DNA from: Bacilli bacterium
GTDB taxonomy: Bacteria; Bacillota_I; Bacilli_A; RF39; UBA660
Direction: 5' to 3'
Length of the DNA: 53,751 nt
Assembly (NCBI GenBank): GCA_051872765.1
Contig: JBJEED010000030.1
Span: 1-53,751, forward strand
The notes beneath the pieces were generated by a model. The model saw nothing but the letters and a program-made list of their open reading frames with translations, ran no database searches and had not been told where the DNA came from. Position numbers and translations under genes: made by a program. Below are positions 2,290-34,729 of this stretch, one piece after another. Every line of letters starts with the position of its first letter. Position 1 is the stretch's first letter.

Positions 2290-2312
2290 AAAAAAGCACA
2301 TAATTGTGCCTT
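2290..2312 (-). terminator. Intrinsic terminator after the 690-aa phosphoesterase gene
   Basis: GGCACA-AUUA-UGUGCU followed by a U tract. Confidence 0.75.
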
Positions 2313-2328
2313 AAAATACTATTAAAAA

Positions 2329-4401
2329 TTATTTTTTTATTGATAATACTTTATTTCTAATACATTTTTTTGGATTTTCCCAATCATTTTTTCTTACATC
2401 TTCACTACTGAATATCATAGGTTCTGTATTTATGTATTGTATATCACCATTTTCATCATACCAAATAGTTACAAAATAATCTCCCATTAAATTAGGAATC
2501 TCTTGTTTCATCATAAATGATGATTGATCAACATTACATGGACAAAGTAATAAATGCACATTTCTATATAACATATAATATACTTTATGATAATGACCTC
2601 TAAGCGATAAATTAGGTTTTGTTCTAGATGGTATTTGATCTATTCCATTTTGTGGCTTTGTTGATAATATTCTTGATGTTCCACCTCCTGGGTGAAATAA
2701 TTCTATTACACAATTATCATAATATACATATGCTCTATCTTGCCCTAGATATTCAAAATCACTACGCCTTTTAGCTAATTCTTCACCAAATATAAAAGGT
2801 CCATAATTAAATGAGTGACTTTGATCATGACTACCACAAATACCTTTCCACTTCATACCAGGATATTTTGGTAATACTTTAGCAGTATAATCAACTTGAC
2901 CAGTTGCTCCCCATAAAAATACTTCATTTACATGATTAGGTCTTACTTTAGAATAATCTCCATCAGATATATCACCTATATGATACATATCGGTAATACC
3001 TCTATTATATGCTTCATAAGCAAATGTATTTACCATACTAGGTTGACACCATATACTACCATAATGAGTATCTGATACTACTCCAAATTGTTTCATAGTC
3101 AACTCTTCTTTTGGAGGTTTAACTTCATAGTGTCTTCTTCTTTGAAAATTCTTTCTAACTACAAGTTCATTATCAATATCAACAACTTCTATCTGCCTAC
3201 CATAAAGTTGTAACATATCAATAATTCCATATAATTCATTTCCAGATATTCCAAGTCTATTTTTAAGTGATTCAAAACTCTCTTCTTTTTTAATATTTTT
3301 ATATAATTTATCTAAAGTTTTAAATAAATCACTTTGACTCTTACCACTATTTTTAGATAATACTAATTGATAATCATCACTATCTTTTTTTAATTCAAGA
3401 GGCATAACAGTTAAATAGTTTTCTTTACTTGGAGTATAATATGGTGATAATGTTGAATTTAATCTTTTTAATTTACCTGCTTTATTATATTCTATTTCAA
3501 ATTCATAAGCACCCATAGTATTTTGTTGTGATGCAGCTTTCATTTTTGGAGTTCTTTCTACTACAGATGGTATAGCAAACATTCTTGTATCTCTAATTTG
3601 AGGAAATTCTTGAGCAGTTAGCGTTCCACCTAAGAATATTAAATCATAGTCTTCATAACTAGACATGCTTCTACTATATTTTTGAGGAGGATAAGCTATT
3701 GTATAAGATTCTCCAGACTTCTTTAAAGACTCTAATTTGATTGATACATTATTAAATTTAACTGTACAACTCTTAGGACCTAAATAAGTCATATCTTCTC
3801 TATTTTTATCTATATACTCACCAATATTTAAATCTTTAGCCCAACTATGATCAGTATCTCCAGTTATAAATAAAGTTTGTATTCCTTCAACCTTAGGAAA
3901 ATATTCTATTAAATGATCAGCTTGAGTATATCCATCATTACTAATTAAACTTTGACCATAAATATTTTCATCTGATTTTTTATATTTTCCCTCTACTAAG
4001 TTACCAGTAATAATAACATATTTAACTCCATCCCTAGCAAACTTTTTATACATGTCATTAAGCATAGATATTTGTTCATTTTTAGAGCCAAATCTAAGAT
4101 CAGATATAACTCCTATTTTTGTAGTTGAATTTATATCTTCTTCAATATTAAATGTAGACTCTTTAGTATAATCTGGATGATTATTAATTGATATTTCAGT
4201 GTTATTACCTTTATCCATTACTGAAATATTAACACCACTATCCTTTAACTTTTTAATATAGCCAAATAAATTAAAAGGTGAAATATTTAAACTTTCACAT
4301 AAAGTATTAACTGTACATGTTTTTTGTAATTTTTCTTTTAAAATATCAAGAATTTCATCATCACTATATACTATAGTCTCTTTTTGTTCATTTTCTTTCA
4401 T
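2329..4401 (-). CDS. Tandem (wHTH + calcineurin-like metallophosphoesterase) x2 protein; N-terminal module degenerate
   Basis: C-module has D444TH446, G476DISD480, G523SHD526, H570PGGG and G602HYH605. N-module equivalents are D101LR, G133NLVE, G181DTD, S225 and G258GTL. Each module is preceded by an approximately 60-aa wHTH-like segment. Confidence 0.85.
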   Translation of the reverse strand: MKENEQKETIVYSDDEILDILKEKLQKTCTVNTLCESLNISPFNLFGYIKKLKDSGVNISVMDKGNNTEISINNHPDYTKESTFNIEEDINSTTKIGVISDLRFGSKNEQISMLNDMYKKFARDGVKYVIITGNLVEGKYKKSDENIYGQSLISNDGYTQADHLIEYFPKVEGIQTLFITGDTDHSWAKDLNIGEYIDKNREDMTYLGPKSCTVKFNNVSIKLESLKKSGESYTIAYPPQKYSRSMSSYEDYDLIFLGGTLTAQEFPQIRDTRMFAIPSVVERTPKMKAASQQNTMGAYEFEIEYNKAGKLKRLNSTLSPYYTPSKENYLTVMPLELKKDSDDYQLVLSKNSGKSQSDLFKTLDKLYKNIKKEESFESLKNRLGISGNELYGIIDMLQLYGRQIEVVDIDNELVVRKNFQRRRHYEVKPPKEELTMKQFGVVSDTHYGSIWCQPSMVNTFAYEAYNRGITDMYHIGDISDGDYSKVRPNHVNEVFLWGATGQVDYTAKVLPKYPGMKWKGICGSHDQSHSFNYGPFIFGEELAKRRSDFEYLGQDRAYVYYDNCVIELFHPGGGTSRILSTKPQNGIDQIPSRTKPNLSLRGHYHKVYYMLYRNVHLLLCPCNVDQSSFMMKQEIPNLMGDYFVTIWYDENGDIQYINTEPMIFSSEDVRKNDWENPKKCIRNKVLSIKK

Positions 4402-4542
4402 TAAATCCTCCCTGATATAAGATAATAAATTGTTTTATTTTACTATTTTTATCATAACTCTAAATTAATAATATTATAATAAAATTAAAAAATCAACAAA
4501 AAAACATTATTTTTATAAATATATTTTTGTCAATATTTTTTA

Positions 4543-5181: not shown

Positions 5182-6369
5182 TTATTTTAAACTCTTTTGA
5201 TATACATTTTTTATTCTATTTATTTCACCTAAAACACTTTCCAAATTTACTTCAATAATATTTAAATTTATTCTATCATTTAATACGCCAGATAATTTTA
5301 ATTCAATACTAGCAGTTACTATAAAACTAAGTAAGTCTTTAAAATGACTATTTTCTAGCTTACTTTGATCTATATCATTATTTAAAACAAATAATAAATA
5401 TAATTTAGCAAAATCAGACAATATATTAATACCATTTTTAATATCAATCTCATTTTGATAATGTAAAAATATATCACATAAATAATCTATATTATCAAAA
5501 TCTAAATCAGACTTTCCATTTAAAAAATCATCTATTGATTTCTTTAAAACATTATCATCATCGGTAATATTTCTAAATAAGATATCAAATATAAGTTTCT
5601 TTTTAAATGATTTTATTTTAGGAAGACCAATTAATGCATTTGAACCCTCTACATTAAAATTATTAAGCATTTCATCAAAGTATTCTTTTCGTTTATTATA
5701 TAAATCCTCGTTTTTTTCTTTTAAAATAGTTAAGTAATATTCAATATCTGCGATTGTTGATAGTTCTTCACTTATAACTTCTAATTTTTCCTTTTCTTTA
5801 AATTCTCCATCAAAAACATTATTCTTATATAACTTTATCATTTCATCTTTATTTAAGTGTTTTTTTAAATATTTTTCTACAGTATTATAGTCTGCTACTA
5901 TATGATCATCATATACAAATGTTTCAACTTTAAGCATTCCAGGAAATTTAAATACTAAATTAGTGTAATAATTTAGATTAGAATTACGCCAAATACTTTC
6001 GGCTTCCATATATTTTTTATAACCAATTGGAAAAATAAGTCCAGTTGATATTTCTTTTGCATAAACTATACCATCATCTCTAACTATTTCTTCATATACA
6101 ATTTTTACAAACTTGCCCTCATTAACAACTTGTGCGTTTGAAGATATATCTAAAAATCCTCTCATTATTTCATTAAATTCATCTTTTCCCTGTAAATCAA
6201 AGCCATAGTTAAACGTTTCTACTATATTTTTATATCTTACTCGTGTTGAGGTGTCTATTAAACCTAGATAATGTTTTTTATTAACAATGCCTTTAACATC
6301 AGAATCATTTATAGACATACTATTCTGCCCTGATAATGAATATAGTTGTCCAATATAATATATTTTCAT
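5182..6369 (-). CDS. Hypothetical protein (395 aa)
   Basis: Long ORF with SD AAAGGAAG and an upstream -10 TATAAT (6399-6394); no recognised motif. Confidence 0.75.
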   Translation of the reverse strand: MKIYYIGQLYSLSGQNSMSINDSDVKGIVNKKHYLGLIDTSTRVRYKNIVETFNYGFDLQGKDEFNEIMRGFLDISSNAQVVNEGKFVKIVYEEIVRDDGIVYAKEISTGLIFPIGYKKYMEAESIWRNSNLNYYTNLVFKFPGMLKVETFVYDDHIVADYNTVEKYLKKHLNKDEMIKLYKNNVFDGEFKEKEKLEVISEELSTIADIEYYLTILKEKNEDLYNKRKEYFDEMLNNFNVEGSNALIGLPKIKSFKKKLIFDILFRNITDDDNVLKKSIDDFLNGKSDLDFDNIDYLCDIFLHYQNEIDIKNGINILSDFAKLYLLFVLNNDIDQSKLENSHFKDLLSFIVTASIELKLSGVLNDRINLNIIEVNLESVLGEINRIKNVYQKSLK

Positions 6370-6459: not shown

Positions 6460-6891
6460 CTATACACAATCTACATATGTATCATTTAAGCATCTAATAC
6501 TACATAAACATTTACTATCCATAGTAAATAGAGAATCAGTTGCTACATAAGGATAACTACTTGTTGTATCAGGATTTGGTGCTAATACCCTAAAAGTTGC
6601 ACATCCACAATCTATTTTTTCTACTCTAAATACTGAACTAGTAGTATCTGTTTCACTTCTACTAATTGGCATACTCCAAGGTGTACCATTACCACAACAA
6701 GTATATAACATAATAGGTCTTGTATTACAAATTACACAGTTAGGTCCACCACCAAGTGCAGGTCTATCACAAGATAATAAACAATTATCAGGACAAGCAT
6801 TTGACTGCAATACATTTATTACTTGTAATATCTCTATAATACAATTTTGACTATTATTCCTATCATTATTATTATTACACATATAATCCAC
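6460..6891 (-). CDS. cotZ: CotY/CotZ-family cysteine-rich spore coat (crust) protein
   Basis: CIIEILQVINVLQ, NTRP, FRVEKIDCGCATFRVL and DSKCLCSIRCL match the B. subtilis CotZ/CotY pattern; very Cys-rich; SD AAGGAG. Confidence 0.85.
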   Translation of the reverse strand: MDYMCNNNNDRNNSQNCIIEILQVINVLQSNACPDNCLLSCDRPALGGGPNCVICNTRPIMLYTCCGNGTPWSMPISRSETDTTSSVFRVEKIDCGCATFRVLAPNPDTTSSYPYVATDSLFTMDSKCLCSIRCLNDTYVDCV

Positions 6892-9017: not shown

Positions 9018-9686
9018 CTAATTTATAATAACTTTGATAATTAATATAAAACTACTTAAATCTAATGTTGGCACTTCTGCTGCTTTAAACATCCAAACCA
9101 TATTAATTACTTTACTTGTATCAAAATTACTTAAGTCGAGAGTTGTTACTTTTAATCCACTAAACATACTCTCCATAGTAGTTACATTACTTGTATCAAA
9201 ACTACTTAAGTCTAAGACTGTAGATTGTGAACGAGAGAACATATGCGACATACTTACGATTGGTTTTCCGTTTATACTCGAACATAATTCACTGGTTACT
9301 GGTCTTGCACTTTCTTTATCAGTAAGTATTACTCCCCATACATCAAAACTTGTGTCTTTCCATTCATTTACATATTCATCTGAATACTTACCCTCTTGCA
9401 TGTATCTATATGTATATTGTCCACCTACATATTCTACCCCTTGTTTTAATTCACCATTATATGTACAACTAGGTTTTTCTTCTTTTATTATATCTTCTTC
9501 AATATTATTATTTTCTTCGTCATTTTTTTCATCATCTATATTATTATCTTCATTATCTACTAATGTATTATCATCATTTATATTACTTTTATTATCTTTA
9601 TAATGTTCAATATATCCAATAATACTTAATGTACTAAATATAACAAATAATATTGATAATACTACTATTAATACTTTATGTTTCAT
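9018..9686 (-). CDS. Membrane-anchored BspA/DUF285 leucine-rich-repeat surface protein, probably C-terminally truncated
   Basis: N-terminal TM, acidic linker, then about 25-aa repeats LDLSSFDTSNVTTMESMF and LDLSNFDTSKVINMVWMF; the third repeat breaks off after LDLSSF. Confidence 0.85.
   Translation of the reverse strand: MKHKVLIVVLSILFVIFSTLSIIGYIEHYKDNKSNINDDNTLVDNEDNNIDDEKNDEENNNIEEDIIKEEKPSCTYNGELKQGVEYVGGQYTYRYMQEGKYSDEYVNEWKDTSFDVWGVILTDKESARPVTSELCSSINGKPIVSMSHMFSRSQSTVLDLSSFDTSNVTTMESMFSGLKVTTLDLSNFDTSKVINMVWMFKAAEVPTLDLSSFILIIKVIIN
9541..9686 (-). repeat. Copy 2 of an approximately 145-bp direct repeat encoding a shared membrane anchor
   Basis: 38 of the first 49 aa are identical to those encoded at 10904-11050. 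Confidence 0.9.
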
Positions 9687-12899: not shown

Positions 12900-13394
12900 C
12901 TACTTTACAAATCCTATTTTATTAAATGGAAATAATCTTAAAGTAACTCTTCCAACAATATCTTCTTTACTAAAATTTCCAAGTATTCTACTATCTTTTG
13001 ATATGTCTCTATTATCACCTAAAACAAAGTATTCATCTTTTCCTGTCTTAACTTCAAAATCATTAGTATATTCAAATTTAATATCAGTAACTAACTCTTT
13101 ACCATTAATATATAATTTATTATCTTCATATTTAATAGTTTCTTCTGGAAGTCCTATTATTCTTTTAATAATTCTATCATTATCTTGTTCATTATTAATT
13201 ACAACAATATCTAGTCTTTCTATGTCACTTAATTTATAAACTAATTTATTAATCATTACAAGTTGACCATCAGCAAGAGTATTATCCATACTATCTCCAT
13301 CGACTATCGCTGGAGTTATTATAAATGTTCTAATTAATAAAACTGCTAATACTATGATAATATAATCTTTTAATTCGAGTAATATTTTTTTCAT
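12900..13394 (-). CDS. lepB: Signal peptidase I
   Basis: One TM, VDGDSMDNTL (Ser), IIKRIIGLP (Lys), GDNRDISKDSR. Confidence 0.95.
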   Translation of the reverse strand: MKKILLELKDYIIIVLAVLLIRTFIITPAIVDGDSMDNTLADGQLVMINKLVYKLSDIERLDIVVINNEQDNDRIIKRIIGLPEETIKYEDNKLYINGKELVTDIKFEYTNDFEVKTGKDEYFVLGDNRDISKDSRILGNFSKEDIVGRVTLRLFPFNKIGFVK

Positions 13395-17770: not shown

Positions 17771-18469
17771 TTATATTTCTAATTTGTCTTCTATTATTTT
17801 TACAATTTCATTATTTATTTCATTAATAGTTTTAATACTTTTAATATCCTTGTATTTACCATTCACACAATTTATGTAATTCCAATTATATTTATTGCAA
17901 ACATAAAGATATCCTTTTTCTGCATCTTTTAAATGTTTAGAACTTTTTTCATTATCATCAGTACATTCTCTATCTTTTCTAAGCTCAAATGTTGCTTTAT
18001 AAGGCATATGCAAGAAAATAACCAAATCAGGTCTTGGAAGTTCACATAAATCAAATTCTAATGTTTCTATAAAACTAAGTATCTTATCTTTTTCTTCATT
18101 ACTCTTTGCCTTACACGCCTGATGCCCCATATTAGAAGTAGTGTATCTATCAAGTAATATTATATCATTTTTATATAATTCTTTATTTATATTCTTTAAA
18201 AAATTATACCTTCTATCTGCTGCATAATATAAACTACTAACAAGAGGATCTACATTAACACTTGTCTCTTTAAAAAAAGATTCACAAATATCTGTTTTTC
18301 CTAAATAAGGTCCCCCTACTATTCTTCCTGTAGGTGAATCATATACAGGAAATGAAAACTTTTTAACTTTTATATTTTTATGCTTAAAATATTTCATAAG
18401 CATATTACTTTGTGTTTCTTTACCAGAACCATCTGTTCCTTCTATTACTATTATTTTAGCTCTTTTCAT
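17771..18469 (-). CDS. tmk: Thymidylate kinase-family protein
   Basis: IVIEGTDGSGKETQ, SFPVYDS, LYYAADR, LLDRYTTSN, PDLVIFL; operon with thyA and folA. Confidence 0.85.
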   Translation of the reverse strand: MKRAKIIVIEGTDGSGKETQSNMLMKYFKHKNIKVKKFSFPVYDSPTGRIVGGPYLGKTDICESFFKETSVNVDPLVSSLYYAADRRYNFLKNINKELYKNDIILLDRYTTSNMGHQACKAKSNEEKDKILSFIETLEFDLCELPRPDLVIFLHMPYKATFELRKDRECTDDNEKSSKHLKDAEKGYLYVCNKYNWNYINCVNGKYKDIKSIKTINEINNEIVKIIEDKLEI

Positions 18470-18481
18470 ATTAATCTCCCA

Positions 18482-18529
18482 TTAAAAAATAACATGGGCA
18501 AAACATGTTAAATCTATTCTATCTAACAT
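18482..18529 (-). CDS. Putative 15-aa leader peptide MLDRIDLTCFAHVIF
   Basis: SD AGAGGT (18542-18537), 7 nt, ATG; stop TAA ends 2 nt before the tmk SD; spans a terminator-like hairpin. Confidence 0.4.
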   Translation of the reverse strand: MLDRIDLTCFAHVIF

Positions 18530-18661
18530 TAATATTACCTCTATTAATAGATTACCATACTTTAAAAAAAATTAAAATAACTATTTAAAATATTTTTTAT
18601 AAATCTCTTTACCTTGAAGAAAATCATTTATTTTGCTAGAATGTATGTGGATGTGAAAGTT

Positions 18662-19600
18662 ATGGATAATAAACAAAAAACAATAGTATTTAAAGTTAGT
18701 GATAATATTAAAAAACAATTAATAGATTATTATTATGATATGAGATGTGATAAAACTCCGCCTTATGCAGTATTTCAAGTTAAACAATATGATTGTGTTA
18801 TTACTTTATATGAAAGTGGCAAAGTAATGTTTCAAGGAATAGGTGCCGATATAGAGGCTAACATGTGGAAAGATTTAGAAAATCACACTAATAATAGAAA
18901 TATAGATGATGAGATAAAGGCTAAAGAAAAAAAAGAAGAAGATAAAACTTATTATTACTATGATGCCATTGGTAGTGATGAAGTTGGTACTGGAGATTAT
19001 TTTGGTCCAATAATAGTAACGGCTACACTAGTTGATAAAAATACAAGAAAGTTACTTGAAGATTTAAAAATAATGGACTCTAAAAAAATGACAGATGATA
19101 AGATTAGAAGATGTGCACCTATTATAATGAATAAAATTCCATATGTAACATTTACCCTATCAAATTTAAAATACAATGAACTTTCTAATAAAGGTTTTAA
19201 CATGAATAAAATTAAAGCAATATTGCATAATAAGGTTCTATATGAATTATCTAATAAAAATATACCTTATCATAAAATAATAGTAGATCAGTTTACTACA
19301 CCAAGAAGTTATTTTAGTTATTTAAAACAAGAAAATATTAATGAAAAAGTTACTAAAATAACATTCTTGACTAAAGGAGAAAGTAAACACTTAAGTGTAG
19401 CAGCTGCTAGTGTAATAAGCAGATACTTATTCCTAATAGAAATAGATAAATTAAGTGAAAAATATGGCATAACACTACTTAAAGGTGCTAGTGATAAAGT
19501 TGATGACGTTGCAAAAAAAATAGTTTCAAAATATGGAAAAAATGAATTAAGTAAAATTGCTAAAATAAATTTCAAAAATACAGAAAAAATATTATCATAA
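18662..19600 (+). CDS. rnhC: Ribonuclease HIII
   Basis: N-terminal TBP-like domain (YAVFQ, TLYESGKVMFQG), IGSDEVGTGDYFGP, DSKKM, VDQF, KGESKHLSVAAASVISR. Start is uncertain (ORF track gives TTG 18614). Confidence 0.93.
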   Translation: MDNKQKTIVFKVSDNIKKQLIDYYYDMRCDKTPPYAVFQVKQYDCVITLYESGKVMFQGIGADIEANMWKDLENHTNNRNIDDEIKAKEKKEEDKTYYYYDAIGSDEVGTGDYFGPIIVTATLVDKNTRKLLEDLKIMDSKKMTDDKIRRCAPIIMNKIPYVTFTLSNLKYNELSNKGFNMNKIKAILHNKVLYELSNKNIPYHKIIVDQFTTPRSYFSYLKQENINEKVTKITFLTKGESKHLSVAAASVISRYLFLIEIDKLSEKYGITLLKGASDKVDDVAKKIVSKYGKNELSKIAKINFKNTEKILS

Positions 19601-19630
19601 AAAATAAACAGTTTAAACTGTTTATTTTTT
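19599..19630. terminator. Bidirectional terminator (rnhC / MMPL)
   Basis: AAAAAATAAACAG-TTTAAA-CTGTTTATTTTTT. Confidence 0.8.
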
Positions 19631-19638
19631 AATTTAGA

Positions 19639-21882
19639 TTATTTATGAGTTTTTTTAATAATTATTTTATCAAATAGATATAGTATTGCAGGAAGTACAA
19701 ATATAGTTGCTAGAAGTGAAATTAATGTTCCAATTCCTAAAAACAATCCAATTGAAGAAATGATAGATGAAGATGAGATAAATCCTATTAAAAATCCTGC
19801 TATTAATAAGATTAAACCACTTGTAATTACAGCCGGTAATCTATCTTCTAATGTTTTAATAATGGACTCTTTTTTATCATATTTCTCTCTTAATTGTTCA
19901 TAACGACTGGCAATAACAATTGCATAATCAATAGTTGCACCCATTTGAATTGCGCATACAACGATATAAGACATAAAGAATATATTTTTACCTAATAAAG
20001 ATACAATACCAAAATTAATTAAAATACTGCCTTCTATAGTAAGTATCAATAATAATGACATCCACACAGACTTAAATGTAAATAATAAAATAATGGCTAC
20101 AAATAAAATAGTTATTCCTGTAATAATGATATTATCTGATGTAAATGATTCTTCCAAATTAATAGCATTAATAGTATTTCCAACTAAAGTAACATCATCA
20201 TAATAATTTTTTGAAATATTTCTAATATCGTCAATTAAATCATAAGTTTCTTTTGACTCAATAGGAGCATCTAAATTAAGAATAATTCTTGAATATTTAT
20301 CACTTTCAAGTAAAGATCTAGATTCATTTAAATTAATATAATAATTACTTATCATCATTTTTGCTTCTTGAGTAAGTGGTAGATTATTAATATTATTATT
20401 TATAAAGTAAATAAGTGATATGATTGATATTCTATAATCATCTATCTTTACCAATTTTTCTAATTCATTATTTTGATTGGCATAATACTTATATAAACTT
20501 AAAGTTACTTCTGAATCTAAATTAAATATTTTAGATAGTTCTAAATAATTTACTTCACTACTCAAATAAAGCCCATCATTTAATTCATAACTTCCTAAAC
20601 TTGTTATAGATGTTATTTTATCATTTTCTTTTAGTTTATTAACTAATTGTAATTCTCTTGAATAATCTTTATCCTCATTTCTAAGTAATATAACTAACAT
20701 ATTATTACTTCCAAATTCTTCTTCAATATTATTTAATGCTTTAGTATTATTACTTAATCTAAAAGACGATGCAGAAGAAGTATCATAAACATATATATAA
20801 TTTGGTATTAATATAATAGATATAAATACAAATATGATAAATATTGGTAATAAAAATTTTCTAGATTTTAAAATAAATTCACTTAATTTATTTTCTTTTC
20901 TTATCTTTTCTTTTTTCTTAAATCTTATTATTACATTAGTAAATATAGAAAGTAAACTTGGCATAACTAGTATAACAGTTAATAAACTACATAAAATTCC
21001 TTTTGATAATACAATTCCTATATCTCCACCGATTTTAAGTTGCATAAATACAAGAGCCATAAGCCCAGAAATTGTAGTTAAACTACTAGCAAATATCTCC
21101 AAAATTGCTTTTGATACAGTTTTCTTAATAGCTAGCACTTTATCAGTTGTATCATTAATTTCTTTCATGTATTGATTCATAAATATAATTACATAGTCAA
21201 TAGATAAAGCCAGTTGTAAAATAACTGCAATTGCTTTTGTAATATACGATATTTCTCCAAGCAATAAATTACTTCCCATATTTAAAATAATTGAAATAGC
21301 AAAAATTATAAAAGCAATTATTGGTTCGAAATATGTTTCAGATGTTATCAATAAAATTACAATTATAACTACAATTGCAAGAATTAAAGCTAAATTAATA
21401 CCATCAGTAACATCTTCAAATGCATCTGAATATATATCATACTCTTTTTCAGAAACAACATTTTCAATATCCTTTTTTATATCTTCTATCTCATCATCAT
21501 TTAAATCTTTTATTTGAAGAGTATATAGTGCCTTATTATTTTTATAAGAACTTTGTGTACCATCAAATAATACACTATCAATATTATTAATTTTAGATAA
21601 TTCTTTAGATAAATTATTTGCATCATCTATAGATATATTACTAACCATAAGTTTAATAGTATCAAAACTACCAAACTCCCTTTGCATTATATCTATACCT
21701 TTCTTTGTTTCAGTATTATCAGGTAAATAACTTACAATGCTATCATTTATATCAACATTATTAATATTAATAAAACAGAATATAGTTAGCCCTAAAAATA
21801 ATATTAATAAGTGATATCTAAAATTAGTAATAAAGTCCCCAAGTTTAACTAAAAATCCCTTATTATTATTTTTCTTTGTCAT
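19639..21882 (-). CDS. MMPL/RND-family transporter
   Basis: Two repeats of TM, extracellular domain and 5 TMs with SIDYVI and TIDYAI motifs. Confidence 0.9.
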   Translation of the reverse strand: MTKKNNNKGFLVKLGDFITNFRYHLLILFLGLTIFCFININNVDINDSIVSYLPDNTETKKGIDIMQREFGSFDTIKLMVSNISIDDANNLSKELSKINNIDSVLFDGTQSSYKNNKALYTLQIKDLNDDEIEDIKKDIENVVSEKEYDIYSDAFEDVTDGINLALILAIVVIIVILLITSETYFEPIIAFIIFAISIILNMGSNLLLGEISYITKAIAVILQLALSIDYVIIFMNQYMKEINDTTDKVLAIKKTVSKAILEIFASSLTTISGLMALVFMQLKIGGDIGIVLSKGILCSLLTVILVMPSLLSIFTNVIIRFKKKEKIRKENKLSEFILKSRKFLLPIFIIFVFISIILIPNYIYVYDTSSASSFRLSNNTKALNNIEEEFGSNNMLVILLRNEDKDYSRELQLVNKLKENDKITSITSLGSYELNDGLYLSSEVNYLELSKIFNLDSEVTLSLYKYYANQNNELEKLVKIDDYRISIISLIYFINNNINNLPLTQEAKMMISNYYINLNESRSLLESDKYSRIILNLDAPIESKETYDLIDDIRNISKNYYDDVTLVGNTINAINLEESFTSDNIIITGITILFVAIILLFTFKSVWMSLLLILTIEGSILINFGIVSLLGKNIFFMSYIVVCAIQMGATIDYAIVIASRYEQLREKYDKKESIIKTLEDRLPAVITSGLILLIAGFLIGFISSSSIISSIGLFLGIGTLISLLATIFVLPAILYLFDKIIIKKTHK

Positions 21883-32609: not shown

Positions 32610-34729
32610 TAAATAAATATCCTTTCTACTTTTTTAACACTACTTATTGTTCTTATATCATCTATAAAATTATTTAATGATTCAATATTATTTACTTTAC
32701 AACTAACATCATAAAATAATTCCTTATTTCTATTAATTAAATTTATTGATTCTACTACAATATCATACTTAGTAGATTTAGTAATAATATTTAATAATAT
32801 ATCTCCTACATCCTCTATAAATACTTTTAATTTAGCCGTATATTTATTAGTAAGATTATCTTCCCAAGTTGCATCTATTATACGCTCACTTTCAAGATTA
32901 ATATTAGGACAATTCTTTGAATGAATTTTAACTCCATATCCCTTAGTAATGTAACCAACTATTGCTTCACCATAAACTGGATTACAACAAGATGCTAGTG
33001 AAGATAATATATCTGTACTTCCTGCAATTATAATACCATTATTAACTGATGTTTTATTCTTAGTTAAGGTATTTACTTTCTTTTTTGGCTCATGAACTTC
33101 TAATTTAGCAAGAACAGAAGAAGGTAAATATTTCATTGTTGCAACACTAAAATATATATCATCAAGATTATCTGATTTTAATAACTTACATAATTTTTCT
33201 ATATTTTCATTTGAAAATACTTCATTAAAATCAACATTCTTTTTCTTACATTCACTAACTAGCATTTCTCTTCCAACTGAAATATAGTTTTCCCTATCTT
33301 TTTTATAAAAATATGCTTTTATTCTACTCTTAGCAGATTCAGTCTTAACTATCTTTAACCATCCTTTTGATGGTGCATGACCTTTTTGAGTTATTAATTC
33401 TACTAAGTCCCCGTCTTTAAGTTCATAATCTAATTTAACCATTTTAGAATTAACTAAAGCACCTGTTGTAGTATTACCTACTTCACTATGTATTTTATAT
33501 GCAAAATCAATTGGAGTTGCTCCTTGAGGTAGTTCTATTATATCTCCTTTTGGTGTATAAACATATATTTCACTTCTTTTAAATTCATCTTTAATATTTA
33601 CAAAGAATTCCATATTCTTTTTTATATCATTAACTTCAACCAATACTCTAAATTGTTCTAATATATGGTCTAAATTATTTTTTACTTTACCATCAATTTG
33701 TTCTTTATAGCTCCAGTGAGAAGCAACACCCTTTTCTGCAATTTCATCCATTTCATAAGTTCTTACTTGAATTTCAAATATTTTTTTATCTTCACCAAAA
33801 ACAGTCGTATGAAGGCTTTGATATAAATTTGGTTTTGGATTTGCAATATAATCTTTAAACCTATTTGGTATTGGTGGATATTTAGATTGAACTAATCCTA
33901 TAACTCTATAGCAATCCTCAACATTATCAACTAATACTCTAATACCAAGTAAATCATAAATATCATCCCACTTTTTACCTTTTTTAAGTTTATTATATAT
34001 ACCTCTTACTGACTTAACACGAGATAACATTTCATATTTTATATCATGCTCATCAAGAATTTGCATTATTTCATATTTCATCTTTGCAAGTGACTTTTCT
34101 AACTCAGTCTTAGATGCATTAATTTTTTGAAGAACATTATTATACTCTACTGGGTCTGAGTATTGAAGACATAAATCTTCCATTTCACTCTTAATCTTTT
34201 TCATACCAAGCCTATGCGCAATTGGTATATATATTTTTACTGTTTCATCTATTATATATTTTTGATGCACCTCATCATGTACTCTAAGAGTCCTTAAATT
34301 GTGTAATCTATCTGCAAATTTAATAAATAATGTTGCTGGATTTTCTGATAATCCTACTATAATTCTTCTATACTTTTCTGGATTATCTATTTTAAATGTT
34401 TGCTTTAAATTACTTATTTTAGTAATAGATGCTACTATATTTGCGCTCTCACTTCCAAACATTTCCTCTATTTCTTCATAAGTCATTTTATTTAAAGAAA
34501 TTGCTTCATGAATAAGCGCACATCCTATAGTCACTGGATCCATTTTTAAAGTAGCCAAAATATATGCAACATTTATAGGATGTAAAATATAATCTTCACC
34601 AGTATTCCTTTTCATACCATCATATATTATCTTAGCTTGCTTATAATAATTATTAATAAATGCTAAATACTCTTTATCCATATAACTTTCAAGCACATCA
34701 ATCAAATCATTATAATTATAATTTTTCAA
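32609..34729 (-). CDS. rel: Long RelA/SpoT homologue; synthetase intact, hydrolase motif degenerate
   Basis: HD-fold N-terminus with HEAISL in place of HDxxED; synthetase DLLGIR, RFKDYIA, YQSLHT, EIQVRT; TGS (VYTPKGD, TPIDFAY), ZFD (CCNP) and ACT domains. Confidence 0.96.
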   Translation of the reverse strand: MKNYNYNDLIDVLESYMDKEYLAFINNYYKQAKIIYDGMKRNTGEDYILHPINVAYILATLKMDPVTIGCALIHEAISLNKMTYEEIEEMFGSESANIVASITKISNLKQTFKIDNPEKYRRIIVGLSENPATLFIKFADRLHNLRTLRVHDEVHQKYIIDETVKIYIPIAHRLGMKKIKSEMEDLCLQYSDPVEYNNVLQKINASKTELEKSLAKMKYEIMQILDEHDIKYEMLSRVKSVRGIYNKLKKGKKWDDIYDLLGIRVLVDNVEDCYRVIGLVQSKYPPIPNRFKDYIANPKPNLYQSLHTTVFGEDKKIFEIQVRTYEMDEIAEKGVASHWSYKEQIDGKVKNNLDHILEQFRVLVEVNDIKKNMEFFVNIKDEFKRSEIYVYTPKGDIIELPQGATPIDFAYKIHSEVGNTTTGALVNSKMVKLDYELKDGDLVELITQKGHAPSKGWLKIVKTESAKSRIKAYFYKKDRENYISVGREMLVSECKKKNVDFNEVFSNENIEKLCKLLKSDNLDDIYFSVATMKYLPSSVLAKLEVHEPKKKVNTLTKNKTSVNNGIIIAGSTDILSSLASCCNPVYGEAIVGYITKGYGVKIHSKNCPNINLESERIIDATWEDNLTNKYTAKLKVFIEDVGDILLNIITKSTKYDIVVESINLINRNKELFYDVSCKVNNIESLNNFIDDIRTISSVKKVERIFI

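Follow-up and report, generated by a model that had tools for sequence, protein, structure and literature searches.

What does a protein do that carries the same enzyme fold twice, once intact and once stripped of its metal ligands? The gene that raises this question lies on the reverse strand near the start of a 53,751-nucleotide stretch of DNA, contig JBJEED010000030.1 of assembly GCA_051872765.1 from an RF39-lineage Bacilli bacterium, which was analysed at its full length and is called the window below. It encodes 690 residues, and each half of the protein consists of a small winged helix (a winged helix-turn-helix domain, wHTH) followed by a calcineurin-type phosphoesterase domain; we refer to the N-terminal half as module 1 and to the C-terminal half as module 2. 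The protein is a real, well-conserved and uncharacterised variant of a known enzyme fold. We hold with moderate confidence that it is a single-chain pseudo-heterodimer in which module 2 is the sole catalytic unit, a metal-dependent nuclease of the type of Mre11 and of DP1, the archaeal 3'-5' proofreading exonuclease of PolD.

A degenerate and an intact copy of one module

The BLASTP self-alignment of the protein pairs residues 18-316 with residues 372-668 at 25% identity over 304 columns (E=6e-19), which bears out the internal duplication proposed in a first-pass annotation of this DNA. The motifs named there for both modules were all found at aligned positions. Module 2 carries DTH (D444/H446), GDxxD in the form GDISD (D477/D480), GSHD (S524/H525/D526), H570 and GHYH (H603/H605), and the five-motif calcineurin signature (D-x-H, G-D-x-x-D, G-N-H-[DE], H, G-H-x-H) can be read in module 2 and not in module 1. 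An AlphaFold2 model computed from a homologue alignment has a predicted local distance difference test score (pLDDT) of 88.1 and a predicted template modelling score (pTM) of 0.85, with disorder only at the termini and at linker residues 351-355, where pLDDT falls below 50. In this model both modules show an identical order of 18 helices and strands in an alpha/beta fold. Foldseek matched it to 107 PDB structures at E<=0.001; every one of the 50 listed has the calcineurin fold, a two-layer beta-sandwich flanked by helices.

Conservation was counted in an alignment of 57 full-length homologues, translated from related loci and falling into two subfamilies, A and B (Table 1). The pattern of a dead followed by a live copy holds across all of them; D480 and D526 of module 2 likewise never vary (57/57), F629 is conserved in at least 90% of the homologues and Y483, in the loop past motif II, is nearly invariant.

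Table 1. Metal-ligand and catalytic positions of the two modules in 57 full-length homologues
Position	Module 2	Module 1
Motif I Asp	D444, 57/57	D101, 54/57
Motif I His	H446, 57/57	Arg in 50/57
Motif II Asp	D477, 57/57	Asn in 42/57
Motif III Asn	S in 45, T in 6, N in 6 (of 57)	variable
Motif III His	H525, 57/57	variable
Motif IV His	H570, 57/57	His in 16/57
Motif V GHxH	H603 and H605, 57/57	first His: G259 in 40, His in 16; second His: lost, Leu in 39/57

The degenerate copy has not drifted accordingly. The mean pairwise identity of the phosphoesterase domains of module 1 versus module 2 is 0.67 versus 0.75 within subfamily A, 0.53 versus 0.57 within subfamily B and 0.35 versus 0.40 between the two, while the linker reaches 0.38 within A, 0.28 within B and 0.18 between them. 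The suggestion that module 1 is retained thus stands, and the doubt whether it would model as a phosphoesterase or prove eroded is answered by the same 18-element fold, high model confidence and conservation. Because it is nearly as conserved as module 2 despite the loss of its ligands, module 1 is, as judged from the alignment, a conserved pseudoenzyme under purifying selection and no decaying copy.

Fused, split and single-module members of the family

An exhaustive HMMER search for the family yielded 1,827 cluster representatives (50% identity) at E<=0.001, and the best 150 of these were assigned to forms by separate module 1 and module 2 profiles. There are fused two-module proteins, with the dead type first without exception; standalone module-1-type proteins of about 330 residues, in at least 15 clusters; standalone module-2-type proteins, also of about 330 residues; and many single-module proteins of 300-420 residues with intact motifs. 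In five loci (L052, L056, L059, L062 and L076) module 1 and module 2 are encoded by neighbouring open reading frames (ORFs) of about 330 codons each that abut within 0-9 nucleotides, the dead one first. A search at the level of the order found about 8 of 26 positive genomes to carry split genes (G058, G129, G187, G193, G198, G216, G218 and G239), again with the dead gene first throughout and with spacers of mostly 45-135 nucleotides. The interleaving of fused and split forms in the tree implies repeated fusion or fission. The pseudo-heterodimer suggested in the first-pass annotation gains from these natural split forms: since dead and live modules occur as adjacent separate genes, there is strong support, of a comparative kind, for the two modules working together as a pseudo-heterodimer, and the split operons are the strongest evidence for it. 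A further set of homologues is interrupted by one in-frame TAA or TAG (G020, G010, G116, G078 and G044); these could represent pseudogenes, errors of assembly or additional split forms.

The same architecture is found in a second lineage of fused proteins with 22-29% identity to the 690-residue protein, one named as Parcubacteria and the others unnamed metagenome proteins. Their genes stand alone among housekeeping genes, and their wHTH resembles that of the regulators CasR and Csa3 (E=7e-10). A maximum-likelihood tree shows a trichotomy of three clades (gut-Bacilli module 1, gut-Bacilli module 2, and single-module/viral), and in it both modules of the second lineage cluster together (Shimodaira-Hasegawa-like approximate likelihood ratio test, 99). 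As its modules group with each other, the second lineage suggests a second, independent duplication. In an approximately unbiased (AU) test on a reduced set, a single dead-module clade was worse by 40 log-likelihood units (p-AU 0.055), which falls just short of rejecting a single origin, for a group that was named after the tree had been seen.

The single-module form is common in uncultured viral contigs, with 123 confirmed matches and 80 loci retrieved. These phage relatives align with module 2 end to end, winged helix included (E=1e-85), and no fused form was found in viral contigs with the patterns used. Their neighbours include ArpU-like late regulators, an HNH endonuclease, the small and large terminase, a PD-(D/E)XK exonuclease and a helicase. 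In tblastn searches of 50,697 deposited phage genomes with the window protein and a viral relative as queries, only ORF43 of Halorubrum tailed virus BLv36 carried the form; Bxb1 was assumed to be among these records. The recombination directionality factor gp47 of mycobacteriophage Bxb1 is DP1/Mre11-like, has limited Mn2+- or Mg2+-dependent 3' exonuclease activity and is needed for phage replication (PMC11795197). It likewise stands alone, is encoded by a phage and has the calcineurin fold, with Mre11 and DP1 as its nearest folds. Unlike the 690-residue protein, it is described as a single domain, with neither winged helices nor duplication (PMC11795197).

Could the gene then be a domesticated phage factor for replication, recombination or packaging, acting mainly by binding protein or DNA, its catalysis secondary or lost? 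We consider this quite improbable. All 57 homologues keep the catalytic His and six of the seven metal ligands unchanged, which indicates retained catalysis, even if the Asn-to-Ser change in the live module and winged helices that resemble protein-binding surfaces would suit a binding protein. The phage relatives do lie between late regulators and terminase genes in many contigs, and gp47 provides a precedent as a recombination directionality factor (PMC11795197); yet besides the one haloarchaeal virus there is no BLAST-level similarity to cultured phages, and no integrase or prophage gene occurs among the annotated ORFs from glyS to window position 13394 or in the annotated neighbour clusters of related loci, where most neighbours carried no annotation.

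Two further observations concern members and neighbours of the family. In one group of phage contigs (L090-L092, L105, L128, L131, L135, L137, L140, L141, L145 and L146), a protein of about 936 residues is encoded within a few genes of the DP1-like gene; it matches PHROG 4291 ('RNA-dependent RNA polymerase', E=0), weakly matches the Pfam RdRP model and has HTH domains at both ends. It is probably a YonO/QDE-1-like two-barrel polymerase, of the fold class of DP2, and its position may be mere co-location at the late-gene boundary. The other is a single-module paralogue of 390 residues (G000 contig C13; L011 4988-6160, + strand), encoded beside an RNase J-like gene, with intact DxH, GD, GNHD and GHSH motifs and a longer helical N-terminus. 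Weakly matching ORFs of 400-430 residues occur in many congeners, some of which lack the fused gene, and are perhaps its orthologues; the paralogue may be the core member of the family in this genus.

Nearest relatives and proposed function

Profile and fold searches point to the same relative. When all PDB sequences were searched with a profile built from the 57 homologues, PolD DP1 alone was matched (E 0.0015 to 0.023), the alignments covering the region of motifs I-III in module 1 and the motif V region with the following segment in module 2, where the alignment spans profile positions 581-623. Foldseek placed DP1 on top for the fused model (4.5e-9; next family 1.7e-6). A single-module viral relative was modelled as well (pLDDT 92.6), and its ten best matches were all DP1, at about 1e-10 and 18-19% identity over about 280 columns, followed by Mre11/SbcD at 1e-8 to 1e-7 and then by Vps29 and MJ0936. 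DP1 (5IHE, 8PPT, 6KNB) is thus the best profile and fold match, for both models, and it shares with the family the SD-x-H-x-GS form of motif I, GD-x-x-DG, G-N/S-H-D, GH-x-H and a Q-[ST]-x-F segment after motif V. This segment had been noticed as a DP1-type Q-T-x-F motif in the tail, and HMMER does align it with QTEF of DP1, pairing PC-x-VD-x-SSF-MMK of module 2 with DP1 ATWQAQTEFQKMV. F629 falls on the Phe of QTEF, which is F586 by numbering anchored on H451. In DP1 the segment carries aromatic residues that grip the single-stranded primer, and F586 stacks on the -2 base, sandwiching it with Y412 (PMC10721889); both residues belong to two loop insertions (403-423 and 577-597) that restrict the site to single-stranded DNA (ssDNA) (PMC10721889, PMC4996933). 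Because DP1 and then Mre11/SbcD lead the profile and fold matches, the wHTH-phosphoesterase family lies, by these models, in the nuclease branch of the calcineurin fold.

Curated libraries recognise the family poorly. In Pfam only sub-threshold matches were obtained (Metallophos_2 in module 2, 17.9 bits against a gathering cut-off of 27), many homologues carry precomputed Metallophos matches, and weak DNA_pol_E_B and PolD small-subunit matches fall at residues 85-184 of module 1, the domain of which has pLDDT mostly above 90. PHROGs gave a weak match to 'DNA repair exonuclease'. No Pfam, NCBIfam or PHROG model matched the family above weak levels, and a single-sequence search of the PDB with the 690-residue protein gave nothing useful. 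Several viral fold neighbours in BFVD are automatically named 'DNA polymerase II small subunit'. The top BFVD fold match, A0A8S5P6X8, is a 660-residue Siphoviridae protein named for a Hint/intein domain, which points to a family member interrupted by an intein; inteins favour enzymes of DNA metabolism.

Two other groups of the fold help in reading the tandem. Mre11 and SbcD, the second-best fold neighbours of the single-module relative, work as dimers, and the arrangement we propose for the two modules is that of these dimers. They share the two-metal phosphodiesterase chemistry of the fold (PMC4996933). Unlike them, the 690-residue protein has no Rad50/SbcC ATPase encoded next to it and, by Pfam, neither a capping nor an SbcD_C domain. 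The B-subunits of the eukaryotic DNA polymerases alpha, delta and epsilon and Vps29 resemble module 1 in keeping the fold with inactivated catalytic motifs, and the inactive polymerase B-subunits have been proposed to act as a scaffold (PMC4996933). In contrast to both, the dead copy here has a live paralogue as its partner, within one chain or one operon, and not a polymerase or retromer.

On these grounds the tandem would go back to a single-module family, frequent in phage contigs, whose module was duplicated and in some species also fused. Module 2 would be a two-metal (Mn/Fe-type) phosphodiesterase of the DP1/Mre11 branch and would hold the only active site, with H525 as the proton donor; its substrate would most likely be 3' ends of ssDNA, which it would cut or trim, and the F629 segment may help to hold the terminal bases as the aligned segment of DP1 does. 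Module 1, its metal binding lost, may be kept as a scaffold or nucleic-acid-binding partner that substitutes for the second subunit of the ancestral dimer. We counted in favour of this proposal that the phage relatives lie amid genes of DNA metabolism and packaging and that module 1 is basic and module 2 acidic (mean net charge across homologues +3.7 and -5.3). From such comparisons we infer nuclease activity, its substrate, module 1 as a scaffold and the role in the cell.

Several results weigh against this proposal. All sequence matches to DP1 are weak and far short of the curated cut-offs, both that of module 1 to PF04042 DNA_pol_E_B (15.1 bits against 29.1, E=0.015) and that to NCBIfam NF003118, the PolD small subunit (19.7 bits against 445). 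Unlike DP1, the 690-residue protein has a winged helix and neither an OB domain nor the N-terminal DP1 domain. DP2 (PF03833) gave no match in this 78%-complete genome, with three archaeal controls positive. In most fused proteins (45/57) the metal-ligand Asn of GNH is replaced by Ser, which could, judging from the sequence, weaken or alter metal binding in module 2; the single-module relatives retain GNHD. The winged helices look poor for binding DNA, and neither the 77 related genome loci nor those of the second lineage show a conserved gene partner that would point to a pathway.

Further comparison separates the family from DP1 proper. In DP1 an OB-fold domain is inserted in the phosphodiesterase domain (PMC4996933); here about 20 residues connect the winged helix to the first core strand, and the model contains no beta-barrel element. 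The family is also bacterial and phage-borne, unlike DP1, and forms a tandem of a dead and a live copy. Searching this genome for PF04042 gave nothing. True DP1 identity is ruled out by the failed cut-offs, the missing OB domain and the lack of DP2 in the genome. Searches for SbcD_C found none in this genome and none in 23 of 24 congeners, irrespective of the 690-residue gene, and in view of this lack of a pattern we rejected the idea that the protein replaces a missing SbcD.

The idea that two HTHs bind DNA has become doubtful. The mean net charge of the winged helices across homologues is -4.3 for the first and -0.5 for the second, and the third helices of both are acidic and hydrophobic, with a conserved S-x-x-E-L-x-G instead of basic residues. 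Given this charge and these third helices, it is doubtful on sequence grounds that the winged helices of this subfamily are classical DNA readers.

Alternatively, the protein could be a small-molecule phosphodiesterase, acting on cyclic or linear nucleotides, Ap4A or alarmones, and possibly also a winged-helix transcription factor in the manner of BirA-type enzyme-repressors, which we regard as rather unlikely. The calcineurin fold includes many such enzymes, and the Ap4A hydrolase SapH and MJ0936 are among the Foldseek fold matches; however, the single-module model is nearer to DP1 and Mre11/SbcD than to the small-molecule enzymes among its matches, MJ0936 and a COG0622 protein. The name 'biotin operon repressor/predicted phosphodiesterase', which one source gives to relatives, and the CasR/Csa3-like wHTH of the second lineage would suit an enzyme-repressor, as would, for nucleotide turnover, a deoxyribonucleotidase-like or HAD-like-looking ORF directly upstream of the gene in 12 of the 77 loci, but the DP1-like base-stacking Phe segment is conserved and the phage copies stand amid DNA-handling genes. 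The alarmone version, also raised in the first-pass annotation, fares worse. This genome has Rel/RSH (RelA/SpoT homologue) sequences at window positions 34130-34729 (- strand) and on G000 contig C8 (38589-39164). Its long Rel/RSH protein shows HEAI[ST]L where HDxxED would mark the hydrolase, as do all 20 congeners checked, and a second RSH paralogue of about 490 residues, detectable in most checked congeners, keeps an intact HDTLED. As the dead Rel motif is found genus-wide, in 20/20 congeners with or without the gene, an alarmone hydrolase that compensates for it was rejected.

A bolder reading takes the family as a non-archaeal sister of the DP1 proofreading domain, a free-standing, largely phage-borne ssDNA 3' exonuclease of the sort that supplied PolD, and by way of PolD the eukaryotic B-subunits, with a small subunit. 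We find it improbable. If true, the dead-plus-live tandem would have arisen twice, in gut Bacilli and in the second lineage, repeating the transition from live to dead seen in the B-subunits; a PolD-like pairing outside archaea would also be conceivable, with the YonO/QDE-1-like polymerase two or three genes away in the one group of phage contigs.

Genomic setting and significance

The gene was found in 25 of 200 high-quality genomes and in 20 of 99 genera in the order-level survey. Congeners that lack it have 600-900 bp between rnhB and glyS, or nothing there but a relative of the 189-residue ORFan described below. Owing to this patchy distribution and the empty rnhB-glyS site, we describe it as an accessory gene at a variable chromosomal slot. 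Uncultured gut Bacilli are the source of every one of the 77 related genome loci; among the record titles are Mycoplasma sp. CAG:472 and Clostridium sp. CAG:628, CAG:1000 and CAG:914, which we take to be RF39-type. The order rnhB-gene-glyS occurs in 11 of the 77 loci, all close relatives, and once more with a 34%-identical subfamily-B copy in the same slot; in other lineages the gene lies elsewhere and the neighbours differ. A functional link to rnhB, suggested by the gene order in the window, was rejected because the adjacency is local synteny of close relatives and congeners keep the site empty. The architecture recurs, as the dead-plus-live homologues show, while the rnhB neighbour does so just in close relatives. 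The gene is optional, stands alone on the chromosome and does not belong to the rnhB operon.

In 12 of the 77 loci, of both subfamilies, a small ORF lies 100-313 nucleotides upstream of the gene (L015, L056, L059, L061, L062, L064, L066, L068, L069, L074, L082 and L085). One type is 5'(3')-deoxyribonucleotidase-like (Pfam NT5C, E=7e-8), and the other has only a DFDGV motif and a HAD-like look; homologues of these small ORFs sit on other contigs in this genome. They are a weak lead, possibly to a link with nucleotide catabolism, possibly to inherited synteny. Close homologues also appear on contigs deposited as Bacteroides helcogenes or uncultured Muribaculaceae (L017, L018, L022, L036, L043 and L083), which are probably mis-binned or mislabelled contigs of metagenome-assembled genomes.

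A patchy gene with phage-borne relatives could be a defence nuclease against phages or plasmids, in which the dead module or the winged helices sense the invader and release the activity of module 2. The presence/absence polymorphism at one chromosomal slot, within the distribution given above, would fit, as would the subfamily-B copy in the same rnhB-glyS slot of another species, the closest single-module relatives being phage-borne and the variable ORFans that flank the gene. Nevertheless, PADLOC-DB 2.0 gave no match for the protein, the split forms, the paralogue or the flanking ORFans, except for a chance-level match to Cas11b (E=0.006), and the second-lineage and viral relatives match just the wHTH part of CasR/Csa3/CARF models. 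Housekeeping genes make up the identifiable neighbours at the 77 loci, the annotated neighbour clusters contain no restriction, Abi or CRISPR genes, and within subfamily A the gene evolves about as fast as rnhB, with no sign of an arms race. A defence role, which had been put forward as an effector function, is therefore unlikely, finding no known defence family and no support from PADLOC or the neighbourhood.

Table 2 gives the coordinates of the gene, its domains and local signals. The gene looks monocistronic, given its own Shine-Dalgarno sequence, a promoter-like site and a hairpin with a T-run. An own promoter and terminator had been claimed; matching sites were found, but promoter-like sites occur in the region as often as expected in shuffled sequence and the local DNA has 25% G+C, so that these calls are consensus matches in AT-rich DNA and weak evidence. 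Sequencing runs containing the gene come from metagenomes of pig gut, faeces and anaerobic digesters; apart from three without a label they are marked as probable DNA, and so they gave no evidence of transcription.

Table 2. Features of the gene for the 690-residue protein in the window (aa, residues of the protein; H, helix; E, strand)
Feature	Position	Strand	Details
Complete ORF	2329..4401	-	690 aa + stop: wHTH1, dead phosphoesterase, linker, wHTH2, live phosphoesterase, tail
Shine-Dalgarno GGGAGG	4407..4412	-	5 nt ahead of ATG
Promoter-like TTGACA-16-AATAAT	4506..4533	-	inside 141-nt spacer downstream of rnhB; consensus match only
Terminator-like hairpin + T-run	2293..2312	-	17 nt past stop
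Winged helix 1, aa 13-72	4186..4365	-	weak Pfam HTH_Tnp_1 and HTH_11 matches at aa 12-59; AlphaFold elements H14-24, H31-38, H42-54, E59-63, E68-72
Module 1 calcineurin-fold domain, dead, aa 94-322	3436..4122	-	motifs DLR, GN (GNLVE), GDTD, S225, GGTL
Inter-module linker, aa 323-357	3331..3435	-	poorly conserved; division point of split forms
Winged helix 2, aa 358-417	3151..3330	-	aligns with wHTH1 and with wHTH of viral single-module family; AlphaFold elements H358-369, H376-383, H387-399, E404-409, E412-417
Module 2 calcineurin-fold domain, predicted active, aa 435-665	2407..3099	-	Pfam Metallophos_2 at aa 439-615, E=0.003; key residues D444, H446, D477, D480, S524, H525, D526, H570, H603, H605, F629 (in DP1-like QSSF segment)
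C-terminal tail, aa 666-690	2332..2406	-	

The neighbours of the gene are rnhB, directly upstream, an ORFan and glyS. Two ORFans, of 189 residues (1638-2207, - strand) and 395 residues (5182-6369, - strand), flank the gene and rnhB; neither has a match in Pfam or PADLOC, and both are missing from the 83%-identical relative locus L013. A distant relative of the 189-residue ORFan occupies the otherwise empty rnhB-glyS site at L180; the slot is a small region of variable content. In the whole window (1-53751), the - strand carries 41 of the 49 ORFs of at least 100 residues, and most of those on the + strand overlap longer ones on the - strand; GC skew is negative in every 2-kb bin but one (18001-20000, about zero), as expected for one replichore. 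This small genome also holds a CotZ-like spore-coat gene (6460-6891) and a DUF285 gene (9018-9686).

A search of full-text literature found the work on DP1, the B-subunits and Bxb1 gp47 and nothing on this family or architecture. What the first-pass annotation called a candidate new system is a single standalone gene of a large family that has no name in the libraries consulted, and not a multi-gene system. PolD has been described as archaeal and as the sole DNA polymerase with an exonuclease of phosphodiesterase fold (PMC10721889, PMC4996933), and a large bacterial and phage family that is nearest to DP1 by profile and fold is a concrete candidate for the origin of the DP1 subunit. The dead-plus-live tandem, which parallels the inactive B-subunits of eukaryotic polymerases, is in its fused and split forms a natural experiment on the passage from a homodimeric nuclease to an asymmetric enzyme with a single active site. 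One biochemical study of the family would give an annotation to many 'hypothetical proteins' of gut Bacilli, of phages and of the Parcubacteria-containing lineage.

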